From: an uncultured Bacteroidaceae bacterium
GTDB taxonomy: Bacteria > Bacteroidota > Bacteroidia > Bacteroidales > Bacteroidaceae
NCBI GenBank assembly: GCA_905233465.1
Contig: CAJOEI010000025.1
Coordinates: 4,951 to 68,950, forward strand
Direction of reading: 5' to 3'
DNA length: 64,000 bases
This document shows, piece after piece, positions 2,130-53,233 of this stretch. The position numbers were made by a program, and so were the translations under genes. Position 1 is the stretch's first letter, and each line of letters starts with the position of its first letter. Below the pieces are notes generated by a model. It was not told the DNA's origin. It saw nothing but the letters and a program-made list of their open reading frames with translations, and did no database searches.

Positions 2130-2201
2130 GCGCCCATAGTTTAATGGATAGAATGAAGGATTCCGGTTCCTTTGATAAGGGTTCGATTCCCTTTGGGCGT
2201 A
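2130..2201 (+). tRNA. tRNA-Arg (anticodon CCG)
   Basis: Cloverleaf folded by hand. Acceptor stem is GCGCCCA/TGGGCGT (G1-U72). Anticodon stem is AAGGA/TCCTT with loop TTCCGGT (anticodon CCG). T arm is AAGGG-TTCGATT-CCCTT. Discriminator is A. Total 72 nt. Confidence 0.9.
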
Positions 2202-45639: not shown

Positions 45640-48573
45640 TCATTCCATCACAACAGCTTCCTTGCGTGCCCCGTCAACCTTGATAACAAGGGGCGTATCG
45701 AGATGCACCACGCGGATGTGGTCGCTTTCGTAAGTGGCAGGCATCTGCGCCAGACGGTCCTGACGGTAGACACCGTCGCCCATGTAGTCGTTTATGGTCA
45801 GATAGGCTACACCCAGTGATGTGAGGTTCTGGAAGAAGTGCGTTCCCTGGCTTGGGTCAACACGGTAGTTGTCCATGCCTGCCTCCACAATCACCTTGGC
45901 GGCAGAGATGGCCGGCCACTTGACAGGTATGCCCAACCAAGGGTCGCTGGAGCCCCAGCGTCCGGGGCCGACGAGGACGTAATTACGGCCTTCGTCGAGG
46001 AACTTGCGGTTGATGTCACGCATCTCGTCAGCTATGGCAGGATTATGGGATGCGCTCCAGTTGTCGGTCTTCACGTAAACGATGTCCTGAATGTCCTGCA
46101 TCACGCCGTGACCTATGGCGTTGTGTGAGCGCAGCAGGCAGGCCTCGTCGCTGATTTTGGTCAGGTCTTCATCGAGATACATCTTGTTGTCGACCATCGG
46201 GCGTATCTGCAGCAGGTAGAACTCGCCTGTGCGGTCGGCATTAATGTTCGCGGCAAACTCTATTTCCACGGGACGACGCATCTCAGACTGGCCATACTGC
46301 ATGACCTTCTGCATCAGCTCCGGCAGCGGGAAGATGCCTTGCTGCAGCACTCCGCAGAAGGTAATCACTTTGCGGCCACCTTCATATATGCCGTCTCGCA
46401 GCACTTGGTCGTATGGGTCGTAGGTGGAGGCGATGTATTGCAATGTTCCGTCGGGTTCGGCGGCATTGACACGCAGTCGCAGGAGGTTGAAACCGTCGTC
46501 CTTGATGAACGTTGTCGGCGGGTTCTGGAGGTCAAGGGCGTAGAAGCGTGTTTGCGTCTCGCGCAAAGCTATCTCCAGCTCGCTGGTTTGCAACACCTGA
46601 TGCGGGTGTGCCGGGCACACTCGCAGACATTGTCCTCCGTCAACGATATACTTGCCCAAACCAAGCGCCAGATTCACCGTTCCCTCTTCTGCCCGCTCGT
46701 CGCCTATGGGATAATAGTTCACCGAGCGTGCCACGCCAGAGAGCGTAGGATAGAAACGTTCGCCGTGAGCATGGCCCACGACCTCCTGCAGTATCACCGC
46801 CATCTTCTCCTGGTCAATGACATTGCTGGTGGCTGTCATATAAGCCTTCGAGTCGCGGTAGAACACGCTGGCATACACAGCCTTGACAGCATCCGAGAGC
46901 ATGTGCAGGCGTTCGTACTTGTCGGCCACATGAGGTATCATATATGTCGAATAGATGCCTGCAAAGGGCTGGTAGTGGCTGTCTTCGAGCAGTGAGCTCG
47001 AACGTATGGCGATGGGAGTATCAACGACTTCAAGGAAAGCCATGAGGTCGCCTATGAGACGTGCCGGCAGGCGGGCATGCAGGAATGCAGTGAGGATCTC
47101 TTCGTCGGGCAAGTCGGAGAGCGCCAGCTGATAGAGTTCATTAGAATCCATGAACTCGTCGAAGATATCGGTACAGAGCACTACCGTCTTGGGTATCATC
47201 ACCGAAGCGTTGTCGAATTCTTCCAAGTCGGGATGGCGTTGTATGATGTGGTCTATGAATGCCAGTCCGCGACCCTTGCCACCCAGACTACCGTCGCCGA
47301 TGCGCTGGAAGTTGGAGTAGCGGTCGAAACGGTCACGCTGGAACACGGCCACAACACCCTGGTTTTTCATGCGACGGTACGACACGATTGCATCGAAGAT
47401 GATTTGTCTGTGCTGGTCAACGTCGCGAACGGAGTTCCAAGTGATGCGTTTGAGGAACTCTGCTATGGGGAACAGTGCCCTGGATCCCAGCCAGCGCGAG
47501 ACATTGTTGTGCTGCACGTGGTAGAGCAGAGCCTCGCGGGGCAGTGTGAAGATGTTGTCCTGCAGGTCCTTGAGGTTGCGCAGGCGTGCCACCTCCTGCA
47601 TGTTGCTCGGGTCGCGGAAGATGAAGTCTCCGAAACCGAAATAGTGGTTGATGAGCTTGCGCAGGTCCACGGCCAGCTTCTTGGAGTTCTTGTCCACGAA
47701 GCGCACCTTCTGGTCCTCTAACAGCTTGGCTTTCTCTGGCTCACTCGACTCCATGATAAGTGGTATGTAGGGATCGCGTTCGCGGATGTTGCGCAGCAAC
47801 GTCACGCCAGCCAACTCGTCTATACGTCCATCGTGGGGGAAACGGCAGTCGGAAATCACACCCAGAGTATTGTCGGCAAAGCGATCGTATAGCGACCATG
47901 CCTCCTCGTAGGAGCGGGCCAGCACAATCTTCGGACGGCCTCGCATGCGCAACGTCTCGAGTTGCGAGTTGAGAGCTTCCGTAGCAAACTCCAGCGACTG
48001 CTGCAACACGAAATTGTATAGGTTGGGTAGTATGCTGGAATAGAAACGCACGTTGTCCTCCACCAGCAGGATCATCTGCACACCAGCTCCGAGGTCGTGC
48101 TCCAGATTCATTTTGTCCTCGATGAGCTTGATGATGGACAGCAGCAGCTCGGTGTTGCCCAACCAGCAGAACACATATTCGAATGCCGAGAGGTCTTCAC
48201 CAGTCATGCGACGGCTGATGCCGTGGCTGAACGGCGTCAGCACCACGCATGGTATCTGCGGATGGCTCTCCTTGATGCCACGTGCAATCTGGAAGATGTC
48301 GTTGTTGTCTGTGCCAGGCATGACGATGACCAGATCAAAGCTCAGACGATCCATCTGTGTCAGCGCCTCGTCCTCGGAGGCCACCTGCACGAAGCGTGGA
48401 GGATAGCGCAGGCCGAGTTTGGCATATTCATCAAATATCTTCTCATCCACACGGCCGTCATCCTCAAGCATGAAGGCATCATACGGGTTGGCAATGAGTA
48501 GCACATTGAAGATTCGTCGAGCCATGAGGTCGACGAAACTGGTGTCTTTCAGTACGAGTTGTTCACGTTTCAT
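45640..48573 (-). CDS. uncharacterised protein: two receiver-like domains plus a PEP/pyruvate-binding (PPDK_N ATP-grasp) domain plus a conserved C-terminal domain
   Basis: REC-like regions are NVLLIANPYDAFMLEDD...DLVIVMPG and MILLVEDNVRFYSS...ISDCRFP. PPDK_N-like segments are IGDGSLGGKGRGLAFI and IAIRSSSLLEDS. I see no TSHAAI-type phosphohistidine motif. The tail reads VGPGRWGSSDPWLGIPVKW...PSQGTHFFQN. Confidence 0.7.
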   Translation of the reverse strand: MKREQLVLKDTSFVDLMARRIFNVLLIANPYDAFMLEDDGRVDEKIFDEYAKLGLRYPPRFVQVASEDEALTQMDRLSFDLVIVMPGTDNNDIFQIARGIKESHPQIPCVVLTPFSHGISRRMTGEDLSAFEYVFCWLGNTELLLSIIKLIEDKMNLEHDLGAGVQMILLVEDNVRFYSSILPNLYNFVLQQSLEFATEALNSQLETLRMRGRPKIVLARSYEEAWSLYDRFADNTLGVISDCRFPHDGRIDELAGVTLLRNIRERDPYIPLIMESSEPEKAKLLEDQKVRFVDKNSKKLAVDLRKLINHYFGFGDFIFRDPSNMQEVARLRNLKDLQDNIFTLPREALLYHVQHNNVSRWLGSRALFPIAEFLKRITWNSVRDVDQHRQIIFDAIVSYRRMKNQGVVAVFQRDRFDRYSNFQRIGDGSLGGKGRGLAFIDHIIQRHPDLEEFDNASVMIPKTVVLCTDIFDEFMDSNELYQLALSDLPDEEILTAFLHARLPARLIGDLMAFLEVVDTPIAIRSSSLLEDSHYQPFAGIYSTYMIPHVADKYERLHMLSDAVKAVYASVFYRDSKAYMTATSNVIDQEKMAVILQEVVGHAHGERFYPTLSGVARSVNYYPIGDERAEEGTVNLALGLGKYIVDGGQCLRVCPAHPHQVLQTSELEIALRETQTRFYALDLQNPPTTFIKDDGFNLLRLRVNAAEPDGTLQYIASTYDPYDQVLRDGIYEGGRKVITFCGVLQQGIFPLPELMQKVMQYGQSEMRRPVEIEFAANINADRTGEFYLLQIRPMVDNKMYLDEDLTKISDEACLLRSHNAIGHGVMQDIQDIVYVKTDNWSASHNPAIADEMRDINRKFLDEGRNYVLVGPGRWGSSDPWLGIPVKWPAISAAKVIVEAGMDNYRVDPSQGTHFFQNLTSLGVAYLTINDYMGDGVYRQDRLAQMPATYESDHIRVVHLDTPLVIKVDGARKEAVVME

Positions 48574-48582
48574 AGGTAATGA

Positions 48583-49773
48583 TTAGTCTTTCATTTCTCT
48601 TATCCGCTGCAACGCCTGCTGCATCTTGTCGTCCTTGGCACACAGTGAGATACGTATGTAGCGGTTGCCATTGGAACCGAAGATGAATCCCGGTGTTACA
48701 AACACACGCGCCTCGTGGAGGATGCGCTCTGTCAGCGTCTCAACGTTGTCGATGTCGTCGGGTATGCGTCCCCACAGGAACATGCCCGTCTGCGTGGGGT
48801 CGAAGGTGCAGCCCAGCTCGCGCATGATGTCCTCGGCGATGGCGCGACGCGTGGCGTATGTGGCAATATTGGCCTGCATGTGCCATTCGTCGGTGCTGCC
48901 CGTGAGGGCCTCTGCCGCCGCGAGCTGCATGGGCCGGAATGTGCCGCTGTCGATATTGGACTTCACCTTGAGAATCCATCGAATGAACTCGGCGTTGGTA
49001 CACAGCATGCCTACGCGCCAGCCAGGCATGTTGAAGCTCTTGGACATGGAGTTGAATTCGATGCAACAGTCCTTGGCTCCAGGCACCTGCAGGATGCTTA
49101 ACCGCTCGCCCTCGTTGAGAATGAACGAGTATGGGTTGTCGTTGACAACCACTATGCCATGACGACGCGCGAAGTCCACCAACCGCTCGTAGGTACGGCG
49201 CTGGGCGCGTGCACCGGTCGGCATGTGCGGGTAGTTGCACCACAGCAGCTTGGGGGCCGTGGCCGGATTGCTTACAAGTTCCTCTAATTGGTCGAAATCT
49301 GGCTGCCATCCGTTGGCCTCGGTGAGGTCATAGTTGACAACTTCTGCCCCAAGCAGTTGGGACAGGGATGTATATGTTGGGTAGCCTGGATTTGGCACCA
49401 GCACGCGCTCGCCTGGGTTCACCAACGCCAGCGTTACATGCAGGATGCCTTCCTTGGAACCTATCAGTGGCTGTATCTCGGTGGCCGGATCCAGCTCCAC
49501 GCCATACCAGCGGGCATAGAACGCAGCCATAGCCTGACGCAGCTCAGGCGTGCCCACAGTTGGCTGATAGCCATGAGCTTCGGGACGACGTGCCTCGCGG
49601 CAGAGCACATCGATGGTGTTGGCCGACGGCGGCATATCGGGGCTGCCGATGGCCAGAGAGATGATGTCGCAACCCTCGGCATTGAGGCGTGCCACCTCTT
49701 TGAGCTTGCGACTGAAGTAGTATTCCTGCACATGCTGAAGCCGCTGTGCAGGCTCAAATACATTCTTTTCCAT
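48583..49773 (-). CDS. class I/II pyridoxal-phosphate aminotransferase (aromatic amino acid pathway context)
   Basis: Contains NSMSKSFNMPGWRVG and NPGYPTY. The track start at 49788 is TTG; ATG 49773 (MEKNVFEP) is preferred. It overlaps the 3' end of pheA by 20 nt. Confidence 0.8.
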   Translation of the reverse strand: MEKNVFEPAQRLQHVQEYYFSRKLKEVARLNAEGCDIISLAIGSPDMPPSANTIDVLCREARRPEAHGYQPTVGTPELRQAMAAFYARWYGVELDPATEIQPLIGSKEGILHVTLALVNPGERVLVPNPGYPTYTSLSQLLGAEVVNYDLTEANGWQPDFDQLEELVSNPATAPKLLWCNYPHMPTGARAQRRTYERLVDFARRHGIVVVNDNPYSFILNEGERLSILQVPGAKDCCIEFNSMSKSFNMPGWRVGMLCTNAEFIRWILKVKSNIDSGTFRPMQLAAAEALTGSTDEWHMQANIATYATRRAIAEDIMRELGCTFDPTQTGMFLWGRIPDDIDNVETLTERILHEARVFVTPGFIFGSNGNRYIRISLCAKDDKMQQALQRIREMKD

Positions 49774-50596
49774 GCGTGTATTCTCCAAGTATTCTTAGGT
49801 CTGAGGTCAGTGGACGTATAGCGTCTATGCACTGTGAATAGCGTGTGTAGTCAGTAAAGAGCACATCGACGTAGAAGAGATATTCCCACTCGCGTCCGAT
49901 GATGGGCAACGACTGTATCTTTGTCAGGTTCAGTTTGTAGAATGACAGCACCGATAGCACCTGAGACAGCGACCCTTCTTCGTGTGGCAGCGCGAACACT
50001 ATGCTGGCCTTGTCCGTCGTCAGGATGTTGCGCAGCAGGTTGGCTCGTGAGGGATTGGCCACAACCAGGAAACGTGTGAAGTTGTGTTTGTTGGTCTCTA
50101 TGCCCTCCTGCAGCACCTGCAGACCGTACATCTCTGCCAGACGTGCCGAGCCTATTGCCGCGTGGCCGTGCATCTGCTCACGTGCGATGGTGCTGGCGGC
50201 ACCTGCGGTGTCGGTAGCTTCCACGATTTTCATGTCCGGATGCTGTCGCAGGAAGTCGCGACACTGCATCAGCGCCACGGGATGCGAATGCACCTCATGA
50301 ATGTCATCCCAGGTGTCAGAAGGCAATGCCAGGAAACTGTGCTTAATGCGCAGCTTGTGCTCGCCGACGATAGTCACCGGAGCCTCGCGCAGCAGCTCGT
50401 AGTTGTGTAGCAACGAACCCGCGATGGTGTTCTCAATGGCCACCACACCTATGGCTGTGGCATCAGCACGCAGCGTGTCAAAGACCAGTTCAAACGACGA
50501 ACAACAGATGAGTTCGATGTCCTCGCCCTCGTAATACTGATGAGCAGCGATGTCGTGGAAACTGCCTTCTATGCCCTGAATTGCTATACGTTTCAT
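49754..50596 (-). CDS. pheA: prephenate dehydratase
   Basis: Contains MKRIAIQGIEGSFHDIAA and NFTRFLVV. The ACT region reads LNLTKIQSLPIIGREWEYLFYVDV. Confidence 0.88.
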   Translation of the reverse strand: MKRIAIQGIEGSFHDIAAHQYYEGEDIELICCSSFELVFDTLRADATAIGVVAIENTIAGSLLHNYELLREAPVTIVGEHKLRIKHSFLALPSDTWDDIHEVHSHPVALMQCRDFLRQHPDMKIVEATDTAGAASTIAREQMHGHAAIGSARLAEMYGLQVLQEGIETNKHNFTRFLVVANPSRANLLRNILTTDKASIVFALPHEEGSLSQVLSVLSFYKLNLTKIQSLPIIGREWEYLFYVDVLFTDYTRYSQCIDAIRPLTSDLRILGEYTHGKECI

Positions 50597-50633
50597 TTAT
50601 TATATTATTATCTCAACTTGAAACTTAAACAAA

Positions 50634-50663
50634 GTTCCCGCCTCATTGCAGTGAAGCGGGAAC
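50634..50663 (-). terminator. attenuator terminator upstream of pheA
   Basis: The minus strand reads GTTCCCGC-N14-GCGGGAAC (8-bp stem) followed by TTTGTTTAAGTTT. The last U of the run lies about 18 nt upstream of the pheA ATG (hairpin base about 37 nt upstream). Confidence 0.7.
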
Positions 50664-50705
50664 CTGATATTATCAATTGTCAATTTCCAATTATCAATTG
50701 TACAC
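50664..50705. repeat. 7-bp tandem tract (TATCAAT/TGTCAAT/TTCCAAT) inside the pheA leader
   Basis: The tract reads ctgatat tatcaat tgtcaat ttccaat tatcaat tgtacac. It forms the loop between the antiterminator strands. Confidence 0.85.
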
Positions 50706-50716
50706 GGCCTACCGCT

Positions 50717-50776
50717 TCACTCTGGCAGAGCAAAGTAAAAATAGCGGTAATAGTATGCGTGACGATGTTGAATCAT
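50717..50776 (-). CDS. pheA operon leader peptide (19 aa): MIQHRHAYYYRYFYFALPE
   Basis: My translation is ATG ATT CAA CAT CGT CAC GCA TAC TAT TAC CGC TAT TTT TAC TTT GCT CTG CCA GAG TGA. Seven of eight consecutive codons are Tyr or Phe. The stop codon is embedded in the antiterminator strand AGTGAAGCGG. Confidence 0.7.
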   Translation of the reverse strand: MIQHRHAYYYRYFYFALPE

Positions 50777-50801
50777 TATATATTTTTGTGTTTATCGGCG
50801 G

Positions 50802-50809
50802 CAAAAGTA
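50802..50809 (-). promoter_or_regulatory. candidate -7 box TACTTTTG for the pheA leader transcript
   Basis: The reverse complement of caaaagta lies 26 nt upstream of the leader ATG (50776). Confidence 0.5.
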
Positions 50810-50876
50810 CACGTATTATCTCATATCGCCAACTTTTTCATCAACTTTTTGCAACTTCACTTGCATTTTGTTGATG

Positions 50877-52061
50877 TCAGCTCAGCATGGAACGGCCCAC
50901 AGCCTTGCGAATCTCGAACATATACACGAAGCACGAAAGCAGGAAATAGACACCGGCCAGGACCCACAGCATCAGCAGTTCATCGTGGACATCACCCAGA
51001 GATGCGCCCATGCCGCAGACACGCACATAGGCATTTGCGCCCCATGTGGACGGGAAGACGGTGCTCACAGCCTTCCAGAACGGGGGAATGGATGCTCCGG
51101 GCCAGCTCACGCCGGTGAGGAACAGCAGGGGTATGGACATGAACACGAAGAGCAGGATGCAGTCCTCGCGACGGTAGATGAAGCTGGACCAGAAGATGGC
51201 CATATATGTGCACGCCAGCAGATAAGGCACCAGCACGCCTATGAGCGTCCAGAAGTGTGCCAGCTGCGGCAGGCCGAACCAGCGCGTGACGCACACGGCC
51301 ATATACACACCCATGAGCAGGAAGAGCAGGAAATGCACCAGCCCCTTGCCCAGGACAATGGCCAGAGTGTTCTTGTAGTGGCGCGAAGGAGGGATGACAA
51401 GGCCGCGGAAGCGTTCGCGCGAACGGCCCATAGACATGCCCACACCCAGACACAGCGCCTGCTGCAGGATGAGCATCAACACAGGGGGTATGAGGAACGA
51501 GGCAAAGCCTCCGGCAGAGTTGTACATCTTCACCTCCTCAAAGCGTATGGGCCAGCGCGCCAGCTCCTCCTCGCGAGCTGTGGTGTTGCTCTGATGTTCA
51601 TGCACCTTGATGTTGCGGTTTATCTCCTGTGCCACATTGATGACACCCAGATAAGCCACCTTATAATATAGCATCGACGTGAGGTCGCTGTAGAGGCCCA
51701 CCACCGTCTGTTCGCCGCGTACGAGGCTGAGGTTGAACTCCGCCGGCACACGCAGTATGGCATACACGTCGCGTCGACGCATCAGCTCCTGAGCCTCGGC
51801 CATATCAGTGCAGTGGGCTGCGATGCTGACCTCCGGCGTGGCATCTACGCGGCGGATGAAGTCGCGGCTACGGGCTGTCATGCTCTCATCGACGACACAC
51901 ACGGGCAGCTCGCGCTGCGTCTCGGTGTTGTATATCATCGCGTACAGCAACGGATAGGCCAGCGGCAGCAGGATGACGAAGATCAGTATGCCCTCATCTT
52001 TGACGAGTTCCGAGAGCTCGTCCATCCACACATGTAATATAGGGAACTTTGGCTTGATCAT
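50877..52061 (-). CDS. ABC-2 type transporter permease
   Basis: 394 aa. An N-terminal TM helix and a large periplasmic loop are followed by a C-terminal 5-TM bundle. It overlaps the upstream paralog by 4 bp. Confidence 0.75.
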   Translation of the reverse strand: MIKPKFPILHVWMDELSELVKDEGILIFVILLPLAYPLLYAMIYNTETQRELPVCVVDESMTARSRDFIRRVDATPEVSIAAHCTDMAEAQELMRRRDVYAILRVPAEFNLSLVRGEQTVVGLYSDLTSMLYYKVAYLGVINVAQEINRNIKVHEHQSNTTAREEELARWPIRFEEVKMYNSAGGFASFLIPPVLMLILQQALCLGVGMSMGRSRERFRGLVIPPSRHYKNTLAIVLGKGLVHFLLFLLMGVYMAVCVTRWFGLPQLAHFWTLIGVLVPYLLACTYMAIFWSSFIYRREDCILLFVFMSIPLLFLTGVSWPGASIPPFWKAVSTVFPSTWGANAYVRVCGMGASLGDVHDELLMLWVLAGVYFLLSCFVYMFEIRKAVGRSMLS

Positions 52062-53233
52062 TCTTGGTATTCTTTGTTGAGGAAGGCATCATTCAGGCGA
52101 TAGCCGAAGAGCTGGGGTGCCAGATATATGGCCACGAGAGCCACCACACTGGACCACGCATAGCTGATGTCATAGCCGTTAAGCGCTTGATTGACATATA
52201 TGAGGAAGTAGTGGTGCAGCGGGAAGATATTGCTCAGCCACTGAAACGGCGCGTCCATTGCTGACACGGGAAACGAGAAGCCGGCCAGCGAGAACTGCAT
52301 CACGCCCAGCAGCGAGCATGCAGACATCGCCATGCGCATCTGGCCGGGGAAGGCCTCAAACATCAACAGCCCGAAGCCCTGTGAGGCCAGCACAGCCAGG
52401 AAACCCCACAGCATCATACGCGAGATGCCGCATTGACACGGGAACTGCAGATAGCTGTAGAAGATCAGGTCTATGACCCAGAAGATGATGGTGTACAACA
52501 TGGTCTGAGGCATGAACTTGCCCAGGATGACCACCCACACGCGCTGCCCGGCCATGTTGTAGAGCTTGCGTTGTGAGCCACGTTTCCACTCTATGCCCAG
52601 CGCATAGCTCGTGGTGAGCATGATGACGAGCATCAGCAGCCCCGGCACGATGAGGTTGGACAGCACCACGGAGTAGTTCAGATGCGGATTGCCTATAGGG
52701 TGCGACTCGATGACGATAGGTTGCAAGGTGCCCATAATCTGGTCGTCGCGAAAGCCACGCGCACGCATCGTGGCGCGTGTCATGGCCAGGCCAGCCATCT
52801 CGCCCATCTTGCGCATGTCCTTCATCAGCAGCGAGGCCGCGACATAGTATGTGTCGTTGGTATAGAACGAGATCACGGGTTGGCGCTGCGTCAGCGTCGC
52901 CTCGGTGGTGCCCTTGGGAATGCGGAAGATGGCATACACCTCGCCGCGCTGCATAGCCTGACGTGCCTCGGTGAAGCTCGTGGTCTGCATGACGAAGTTG
53001 GTCTCCTCCATCGTGCCGAGGATGCGTGTCAGCTGGCGCGTGACATGCGTGTTGTCCTCATCGACCAGTGCTGCTGGCAACTTGGTGGGCAGGCCAGCCT
53101 GCATCAGGCTCGTGAACATCCACAGGAACCCCAGTGGAGCCACAAACATGATGACCAGGAAGATAGGTCTCCGGCCGAAGGCTACGAGCTCACGACGCGT
53201 GATCTGCCAGATGTTCTTTAATGCCGTGAGCAT
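52058..53233 (-). CDS. ABC-2 type transporter permease
   Basis: 391 aa with the same architecture as its neighbour. Confidence 0.75.
   Translation of the reverse strand: MLTALKNIWQITRRELVAFGRRPIFLVIMFVAPLGFLWMFTSLMQAGLPTKLPAALVDEDNTHVTRQLTRILGTMEETNFVMQTTSFTEARQAMQRGEVYAIFRIPKGTTEATLTQRQPVISFYTNDTYYVAASLLMKDMRKMGEMAGLAMTRATMRARGFRDDQIMGTLQPIVIESHPIGNPHLNYSVVLSNLIVPGLLMLVIMLTTSYALGIEWKRGSQRKLYNMAGQRVWVVILGKFMPQTMLYTIIFWVIDLIFYSYLQFPCQCGISRMMLWGFLAVLASQGFGLLMFEAFPGQMRMAMSACSLLGVMQFSLAGFSFPVSAMDAPFQWLSNIFPLHHYFLIYVNQALNGYDISYAWSSVVALVAIYLAPQLFGYRLNDAFLNKEYQE

Follow-up and report, generated by a model that had tools for sequence, protein, structure and literature searches.

Experimental dissection of transcription attenuation by leader peptides comes almost exclusively from Proteobacteria. 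In 2004, Vitreschak et al. reportedly predicted attenuators in proteobacteria and in some Bacteroidetes/Chlorobi. This report concerns a locus upstream of pheA, the prephenate dehydratase gene, in a 64,000-nt stretch of DNA from an uncultured Bacteroidaceae bacterium (GenBank assembly GCA_905233465.1, contig CAJOEI010000025.1, positions 4,951 to 68,950; hereafter the window), the minus strand of which probably carries such an attenuator. One of the closest described systems precedes the pheA-aspC3 operon of Flavobacterium psychrophilum, for which Guerin et al. 2021 (PMC9723704) described a Phe/Tyr/Trp leader-peptide attenuator with the peptide MNTNNTFYSNNSFYFYWNIGRDCYMVI. Its 5′ region was mapped and spans 170 nt, read-through was condition-dependent with the highest expression in minimal medium, and the element is conserved in Flavobacteriaceae and gave no Rfam hit (PMC9723704). 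Within the Bacteroidales, Table 7 of Song et al. 2005 (PMC1173090; Merino attenuator database) lists a putative attenuator before the Bacteroides thetaiotaomicron operon pheA > hisHb > aroA-aroQ > tyrA. The Bacteroid-trp leader (Rfam RF01692; Weinberg et al. 2010, PMC2864571) is also regarded as a peptide-leader attenuator.

An initial annotation of the locus, produced by a model that read the DNA, had called leader-peptide attenuation much less well documented by experiment in Bacteroidota. The kind is better documented than this implied, as the F. psychrophilum and B. thetaiotaomicron cases illustrate, and the remark holds to the extent that these cases rest on prediction and transcriptomics only. 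Our literature searches yielded no study that dissects leader-peptide attenuation by experiment in Bacteroides or Prevotella. A leader-peptide attenuator before pheA has already been described in the phylum, and no new mechanism is revealed here.

Results

Competing helices in the pheA leader

The elements of the pheA leader (Table 1), their mutually exclusive pairings, the energies of these pairings and their conservation and covariation over about 75 genomes were all observed. Taken together, they point to a ribosome-mediated (leader-peptide) transcription attenuator of the pheA-aminotransferase operon that would sense charged tRNA-Tyr and tRNA-Phe, a reading to which we assign a probability of roughly 85%. 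The initial annotation had proposed the same mechanism, and the proposal gained support from folding energies, from mini-ORFs (short open reading frames) in relatives, from compensatory changes and from a conserved -7 box.

The 19-codon ORF annotated at 50776-50717, with five Tyr and two Phe codons among eight consecutive codons, is present and encodes MIQHRHAYYYRYFYFALPE. Its stop codon lies inside the strand AGTGAAGCGG (50721-50712), which is exactly complementary to CCGCTTCACT (50659-50650), so that the 10-bp pairing claimed for these strands is perfect; in RNA it forms the antiterminator helix (2:3) AGUGAAGCGG:CCGCUUCACU. The terminator hairpin (3:4) has the annotated arms GTTCCCGC-N14-GCGGGAAC at 50663-50634, and its stem proved longer than stated, with 13-14 bp closing a 6-nt loop between 50665 and 50632. 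The U-rich run at 50633-50621, in which UUUGUUU comes after the -22 kcal/mol hairpin, was also found as described, except that it ends 24 nt, and not about 18 nt, before the pheA ATG (50596). A further predicted hairpin (1:2), which the initial annotation did not list, is formed by the Tyr/Phe codons and segment 2 and would complete the classical four-segment layout (1:2, 2:3 and 3:4).

Table 1. Features of the pheA leader and of the genes downstream of it (window coordinates)
Feature	Coordinates	Strand	Basis or remark
-33-like promoter element GTTG	50830..50833	minus	20 nt upstream of -7 box; consensus-only prediction
Bacteroidetes-type -7 box TACTTTTG (consensus TAnnTTTG)	50802..50809	minus	conserved among related loci
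Leader mini-ORF MIQHRHAYYYRYFYFALPE, 19 codons + TGA	50717..50776	minus	ATG at 50776, TGA 50719-50717; homologues in related loci
Regulatory codon block Tyr8-Phe15 (YYYRYFYF)	50732..50755	minus	5 Tyr + 2 Phe in 8 codons
Segment 1, 5′ strand of 1:2 (anti-antiterminator or pause) hairpin	50731..50750	minus	within Tyr/Phe codons; minimum-free-energy fold
Segment 2, core AGUGAAGCGG at 50721-50712 holding stop UGA	50709..50724	minus	partner is segment 1 or segment 3
Heptamer tract (AAUUGAN repeats), antiterminator loop	50669..50699	minus	Tandem Repeats Finder: period 7, 4.4 copies
Segment 3 CCGCUUCACU, antiterminator partner and terminator 5′ arm	50650..50659	minus	pairing and compensatory changes
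Intrinsic terminator hairpin 3:4, 13-14 bp, 6-nt loop	50632..50665	minus	-21.4 to -22.1 kcal/mol
U-rich tract TTTGTTTAAGTTT (as RNA UUUGUUUAAGUUU)	50621..50633	minus	3′ of terminator
pheA, prephenate dehydratase, first gene downstream of leader	49754..50596	minus	Pfam PDT 1.3e-57; NCBIfam prephenate dehydratase
Class I/II aminotransferase, second operon gene	48583..49788	minus	start codon uncertain, listed ORF overlaps pheA end
977-aa protein gene	45640-48573	minus	PPDK_N (phosphoenolpyruvate/pyruvate-binding) domain and weak receiver-domain match; starts 10 nt past aminotransferase gene

The leader as a whole had a minimum free energy of -53.4 kcal/mol (z = -3.7 against dinucleotide shuffles), and the 2:3 duplex reached -17.2 kcal/mol as compared with -9.5 +/- 2.0 in shuffled upstream sequence, a value that 0 of 100 shuffles equalled. 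The energies predicted for the three structures of the window were -16.7 kcal/mol for 1:2, -24.9 for the complete 2:3 (including a hairpin of the heptamer tract) and -22.1 for the terminator. Comparison of the conformers, a check suggested in the initial annotation, agreed with its scheme. When a ribosome footprint was masked at Tyr9 or Phe15, the nascent RNA was predicted to fold as 2:3 at about -27 kcal/mol; with the footprint at UGA, segment 3 was predicted to stay unpaired and the terminator to be able to form.

On this basis, the leader would work as follows. Transcription would begin shortly after the -7 box, about 20 nt 5′ of the mini-ORF. If no ribosome loads, segment 1 would pair with segment 2, and segment 3 would be free to build the terminator with segment 4, stopping transcription at the U-tract before pheA. 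With plentiful Tyr and Phe, the ribosome would reach UGA and cover segment 2, and the terminator would form as well. Scarcity of Tyr or Phe would stall the ribosome in YYYRYFYF, where it covers segment 1 and leaves segment 2 free; segment 2 would then pair with segment 3 before segment 4 is made, no terminator would arise and RNA polymerase would read into pheA. From this scheme we infer both ribosome-polymerase coupling and a response to amino-acid supply.

Conservation of the leader among related pheA loci

A scan of one genome per species, made with an alignment of PheA, gave 80 loci with 66-82% PheA identity from Prevotella, Paraprevotella, Phocaeicola and unnamed Bacteroidaceae. Two of the 80 end short on the upstream side, leaving 78 usable loci. 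Counting as a mini-ORF any ATG-initiated frame with at least five aromatic residues in eight codons, we found a Tyr/Phe-rich mini-ORF directly upstream of pheA in 73 of the 78 loci, typically 150-190 nt away. The number rises to 75 with L040 and L059, in which the mini-ORF lies further upstream and a gene is inserted between leader and pheA. The search for aromatic mini-ORFs ahead of pheA orthologs, another check named in the initial annotation, was thus positive in 73 loci plus the two with an inserted gene. Cultivable relatives are among the carriers of this element, for example Paraprevotella xylaniphila/clara and Phocaeicola coprophilus (L022, L024, L058). In L005 and L007 pheA directly follows another gene and has no leader, and L010 has a promoter directly at pheA, likewise without leader. 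A GC hairpin with a U-rich tail, its 5′ arm core being CCCGCTTCAC, accompanies the mini-ORF in 72 of the 73 loci; L013 keeps mini-ORF and hairpin and lacks the U-tract.

The position of the hairpin raises the question of which operon it serves. Two genes for ATP-binding cassette (ABC) permeases of the ABC-2 type and one for an HlyD-type adaptor lie upstream on the same strand, the nearest permease gene ending at 50877, and the hairpin is the sole terminator-like site detected in 48000-53000. Both facts would suit a simple terminator of the ABC-transporter operon, with pheA transcribed from its own promoter downstream and the mini-ORF meaningless. This is highly improbable, since the ABC-2 permease is upstream of pheA in 0 of the 80 related loci, yet 72 of them keep hairpin, mini-ORF and pheA. 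The leader travels with pheA, and the permease is absent from the related loci, which means that pheA, rather than the upstream operon, is what the leader belongs to; we ruled out the assignment of the terminator to that operon on this count. Moreover, a conserved -7 box separates the permease gene from the mini-ORF, the 36 nt that lie between hairpin and pheA showed no Bacteroidetes-type promoter box, and the 5′ arm of the hairpin is complementary to segment 2, with compensatory changes.

The spacing of the elements is consistent with attenuation. In 52 of 72 loci the segment 2 core is separated from the last aromatic codon by 9-11 nt, and in the window, where that codon encodes Phe, the distance is 11 nt. 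Segment 2 would be only just clear of a ribosome that stalls at the end of the regulatory block. In nearly all loci the stop codon comes in or after segment 2, being inside it in the window's clade and 8-51 nt past its start in other lineages; a ribosome that finishes the peptide would therefore cover segment 2 or would have just crossed it.

The peptides themselves vary. Examples are MQHRNSYYWFYFYFTQTR from the window's clade, MLNAYFYGYYFYFASNCEAGSCV from Prevotella and, in Paraprevotella and Phocaeicola, a peptide beginning MKELFNTYFYFFFYFYFSHKVKREFVCV. Conservation of the aromatic core as a peptide across genera could be taken to mean that the mini-ORF encodes a functional aromatic-rich micro-protein acting in trans, the hairpins being ordinary mRNA structure; peTrpL of Sinorhizobium, which is described as a trans-acting leader peptide, is a precedent. 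We give this idea very little credence, as only the aromatic block is conserved while N- and C-termini, length (18-37 aa) and stop position vary freely, and as it leaves the covarying alternative helices and the strict linkage to pheA unexplained. Such a function would in any case be an added role, compatible with attenuation.

Beside these regularities, one locus (L004:1493-1705) carries an insert of about 220 nt in the interval between terminator and pheA, holding three copies of a GC-rich hairpin-forming unit (GCCCCCCGGCCCCCTAAAGGGGGTGTGAG-like) and resembling a small repeat of the repetitive extragenic palindromic (REP) or miniature inverted-repeat transposable element (MITE) type.

Covariation and folding of individual leaders

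Alignment A2 comprises 72 sequences and extends from the mini-ORF ATG through the terminator. In these 72 loci, 85.9% of the cells of the terminator were paired, compared with at most 58% when its 3′ strand was slid, and 71 cells showed double changes as against 24.6 in shuffles. For the antiterminator, each of nine core pairs was paired in more than 90% of the loci, compared with at most 46% after sliding, and the double-change cells numbered 12 as against 5.1. The shuffles equalled neither count (0/500 in each case, a figure that is not a probability). The compensatory changes that the initial annotation suggested looking for are accordingly present in both helices. Individual cases in the antiterminator are GUGGAGCGGG with CCCGCUCCA in L017/L018, GUGAAACGGG with CCCCGUUUC in L023, and GUAAGAGCGGG with CCCCGCUCU in L054; the segment 2 core GTGAAGCGG is nearly invariant.

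The inner helix of 1:2 was 84% paired as compared with 39-54% when slid, and RNAalifold retained only its 5-bp core CUUUR:YGAAG, which pairs in 69-72 of the 72 sequences. A 1:2 model derived from the window and applied to the all-lineage alignment was set aside, having reached 73% pairing with weak covariation only; it fits poorly because the register of the outer helix differs among lineages. Folding of each locus by itself led to the same picture. With no ribosome, the aromatic codons were the predicted partner of the segment 2 core in 69 of 72 loci; once segment 1 was masked and segment 4 was left untranscribed, its predicted partner was the 5′ arm of the terminator, in 68 of 72.

In Prevotella-type leaders such as L031 and L055, the conserved Gly codon (GGC/GGT) of YFYGYYFYF, together with the UAC before it, is complementary to a GCCGUA/GUCGUA that is conserved just past segment 2, a pairing of columns 24-36 with columns 76-86 of alignment A2. 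This part of the peptide seems to be set by the outer helix of 1:2 rather than by a role of the peptide.

Probable translation of the mini-ORF

The codon block of the family terminates in the nearly invariant TTTTACTTT, and its last four codons, UAC UUU UAC UUU, hardly change even at third positions. Such constraint on the nucleotides is expected if these codons must also pair with segment 2. It would also suit a translation-independent RNA switch or a constitutive partial terminator, in which the leader binds a protein, a small molecule or uncharged tRNA, for example at the heptamer tract, and the aromatic codons are a by-product of a U-rich strand needed to pair the purine-rich segment 2. 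Two properties of the spacer between segments 2 and 3 lend some weight to this alternative, namely its conserved length (34-59 nt, median 50) and an enrichment of (A)AUUGA(A) repeats in some lineages (54 against 17.7 expected).

The behaviour of the reading frame makes it improbable nonetheless. An in-frame ATG with an open frame over the block is found in 73 of the 78 usable loci, that is, in 73/73 of those with a mini-ORF, whereas the other two frames are open across it in 15 and 1 loci. Indels 5′ of the block come in multiples of three in alignment A2. Outside its last four codons the block alternates between synonymous codons, with 220 TAC to 125 TAT and 247 TTT to 82 TTC, and the residues remain aromatic. 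The placement of the stop codon in or after segment 2, the lack of a match to any riboswitch, T-box or other Rfam family and the absence of spacer repeats from most loci also speak against an RNA switch. Taken with the invariant codons, the frame, indel and synonymous-codon patterns favour translation of the mini-ORF, as a leader-peptide attenuator would require. The expression data for the F. psychrophilum counterpart lend further indirect support to translation and to a rise in read-through when cognate charged tRNA is scarce.

No Shine-Dalgarno sequence precedes the start of the mini-ORF on the minus strand, and the window mini-ORF has no Trp codon. Codon totals across the family are 345 Tyr, 329 Phe and 8 Trp, and the window leader lies at the Tyr-rich extreme of the range. 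The Tyr bias that the initial annotation regarded as notable for a pheA-led operon is not odd, given this balance and given that the operon of the relatives also makes tyrosine. When five leader peptides were looked up exactly in one large public protein collection, one was found, without a name, so that these mini-ORFs are virtually missing from that collection.

The heptamer tract

According to the initial annotation, the antiterminator loop is formed by a heptamer tract. The tract is real in the window (period 7, 4.4 copies), and its palindromic CAATTG copies form a small hairpin within the loop in the predicted fold, and yet it is lineage-specific. In the spacers of the 72 loci TTGA occurs 54 times where composition predicts 17.7, an excess contributed by a minority of loci: about 18 of the 72 have two or more TTGA repeats, spacer repeats were noted in L001-L011, L031, L034, L043, L053, L055, L057, L069 and L076, and the spacers of Paraprevotella and Phocaeicola have no heptamer repeats. 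We discarded the tract as a general feature of the family for this reason. It may be a spacer made by slippage or a binding site, both being candidates, and it is the only loose end here with some potential for novelty.

A wider proposal would join two ideas, that the leaders form an uncurated, widespread family of bivalent Tyr and Phe (sometimes Trp) attenuators and that the heptamer tract, in the window's clade and some Prevotella, is a platform binding a trans-acting factor. The two together seem to us a long shot. If true, the tract would add a second regulatory input, and the conservation of the attenuator would imply tight transcription-translation coupling in a phylum largely without Shine-Dalgarno-led initiation. 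The repeated triplets to which TRAP binds in Bacillus would be a loose parallel to such a platform.

Predicted promoter region

The -7 box annotated at 50809-50802 is present on the minus strand as TACTTTTG. In 66 of 73 loci TAnnTTTG occurs 20-38 nt 5′ of the ATG that opens the mini-ORF, as compared with 2.9% of 80-nt windows drawn at random from these loci; conservation of the promoter box, the fourth of the in-silico checks, is thereby positive. The arrangement GTTG-N20-TACTTTTG is a predicted promoter by its match to the Bacteroidetes -33/-7 consensus, and (G/A)TTGG is found at the same spacing from the -7 box in related loci. A transcription start a few bases past the -7 box, as the position of the box suggests, would give the leader a 5′ untranslated region (5′ UTR) of about 20 nt, in agreement with the modal 5′ UTR of 23 nt in B. 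thetaiotaomicron (PMC7366714). A sigma-70 scan also predicted TTGCCG-N18-TATAAT (50804-50775), which was set aside because the Bacteroidetes consensus is TAnnTTTG and this is the box that is conserved.

The pheA operon and Rfam searches

The window PheA has a PDT domain only in Pfam, which makes it monofunctional, and its closest relatives (76-85% identity) are proteins of uncultured rumen and gut Bacteroidaceae/Prevotellaceae. The same aminotransferase gene lies 3′ of pheA in 75 related loci. The operon of the relatives consists of pheA, the aminotransferase gene and genes for a bifunctional 3-deoxy-D-arabino-heptulosonate 7-phosphate (DAHP) synthase/chorismate mutase and a prephenate dehydrogenase; judged by this gene content, it controls entry into the pathway plus both the Phe and the Tyr branch. 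The mixture of Tyr and Phe codons in the leader is explained by such an operon, as it serves the synthesis of both amino acids.

Genes for DAHP synthase/chorismate mutase and prephenate dehydrogenase (tyrA) were absent from the whole 64-kb window. At their position follows the gene for a 977-aa protein, for which the 80 related loci yielded no homologue. Its PPDK_N and weak receiver domains, together with this lack of homologues, ruled it out as a member of the aromatic pathway, and it is in all likelihood an unrelated neighbour or a replacement. By its predicted gene order, the operon is apparently truncated or rearranged in this genome, and the leader looks as if it had been inherited from a four-gene operon.

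An Rfam cmscan of 49500-52000 at E <= 10 gave no match to Phe_leader, Bacteroid-trp, a T-box or an amino-acid riboswitch. The only matches in this region, those of RsaJ and the hilD 3′UTR to the terminator, were dismissed as generic, since their 32 and 19 bits fall far below the respective gathering scores, 100 and 74. At gathering thresholds, nothing in the whole window matched Rfam besides a tRNA gene at 2130-2201 (+).

Discussion

Our results argue for a leader-peptide attenuator ahead of pheA in the window and its relatives, and several points weigh against this reading. The proposed attenuator is, in this lineage, read from sequence and predicted folds. Bacteroidota rarely use Shine-Dalgarno sequences and, to our knowledge, transcription-translation coupling has not been demonstrated in them. 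Few events underlie the covariation of the antiterminator (12 cells at 6 pairs), its strands being almost invariant, and here as for the other helices the shuffle control overstates significance because the sequences are related. The 1:2 hairpin is backed mostly by conservation and not by covariation, which is weak because both strands are nearly invariant, and the register of its outer helix is lineage-specific. At equilibrium the full-length RNA is predicted to favour the terminator, even with segment 1 masked; the decision of the switch must consequently be kinetic, as in classical attenuators. Finally, the window operon has no genes for DAHP synthase/chorismate mutase and tyrA, and the leader may here regulate pheA and the aminotransferase gene only.

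The window element and its approximately 75 relatives provide a clean, strongly conserved and so far unused test case in the Bacteroidales, which are dominant bacteria of gut and rumen. With a predicted promoter, a mini-ORF and three competing helices at hand, coupling between ribosome and RNA polymerase could be tested directly, in a phylum in which promoters are unusual and translation mostly starts without a Shine-Dalgarno sequence. With a single sensor, these bacteria could adjust the pathway that Phe and Tyr share to how much of either amino acid is available. Rfam lacks the family, and annotation would gain from a covariance model based on alignment A2.

Comparison with known systems

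The pheL-pheA leader of E. coli and other gamma-proteobacteria (Rfam Phe_leader; PMC3082878) resembles the window element in that a prephenate dehydratase gene is preceded by a mini-ORF with clustered cognate codons, by the alternative helices 1:2, 2:3 and 3:4 and by an intrinsic terminator. Whereas pheL has Phe codons only, the window mini-ORF has five Tyr and two Phe codons, implying a sensor of two amino acids. The window element also differs in lying outside any Rfam leader family at E <= 10, in its predicted Bacteroidetes-type promoter, in a mini-ORF that starts without Shine-Dalgarno sequence and in the monofunctional PheA (PDT only) that it would regulate. By analogy, it would act like the enterobacterial pheL attenuator, and it is not a member of Rfam Phe_leader. 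Leaders that mix codons for amino acids made by the same operon are familiar from the enterobacterial thrL (Thr and Ile) and ilvL (Ile, Leu, Val). The likeness to these is one of multi-amino-acid codon logic and an analogy only, as the amino acids, the phylum and the sequences are others.

Other systems come from the same phylum. The Bacteroid-trp leader (RF01692) also acts in cis, in Bacteroidetes, on an operon for the synthesis of an aromatic amino acid (Trp). Its operon and its codon specificity are different and its model gave no match in the window region; the motif is the tryptophan counterpart of the window element. The attenuator of B. thetaiotaomicron (PMC1173090) is, as far as its table entry goes, also from the Bacteroidales and stands before an operon with the same head and the same four genes as in the window's relatives, with a terminator/antiterminator pair predicted. 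That entry, on which the comparison rests, gives a terminator/antiterminator prediction and does not mention a leader peptide; the last two genes of the listed operon are missing from the window operon.

The window element can also be compared with the pheA-aspC3 leader of F. psychrophilum (PMC9723704). The two belong to different classes (Flavobacteriia and Bacteroidia), their helices differ (GGGAUUGU/ACAAUCCC there, GUGAAGCGG/CCGCUUCAC in the window), the peptide has 27 aa as against 19 aa, and a mapped 5′ end and expression data exist there, whereas the window element has been read in DNA only. On the other side, both come from the same phylum and stand ahead of pheA followed by an aminotransferase gene, both have a mini-ORF that mixes Phe/Tyr(/Trp) codons (...FYSNNSFYFYW... 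in F. psychrophilum), and both have a GC hairpin with a U-tract, there about 30 nt before pheA. In the published F. psychrophilum sequence we could also read that the aromatic codons pair with a purine-rich AUAGGAAGGGAUUGU, which is complementary as well to the terminator 5′ arm ACAAUCCC. Likened by position and layout, the window element can be regarded as the Bacteroidales counterpart of the Flavobacterium pheA element.

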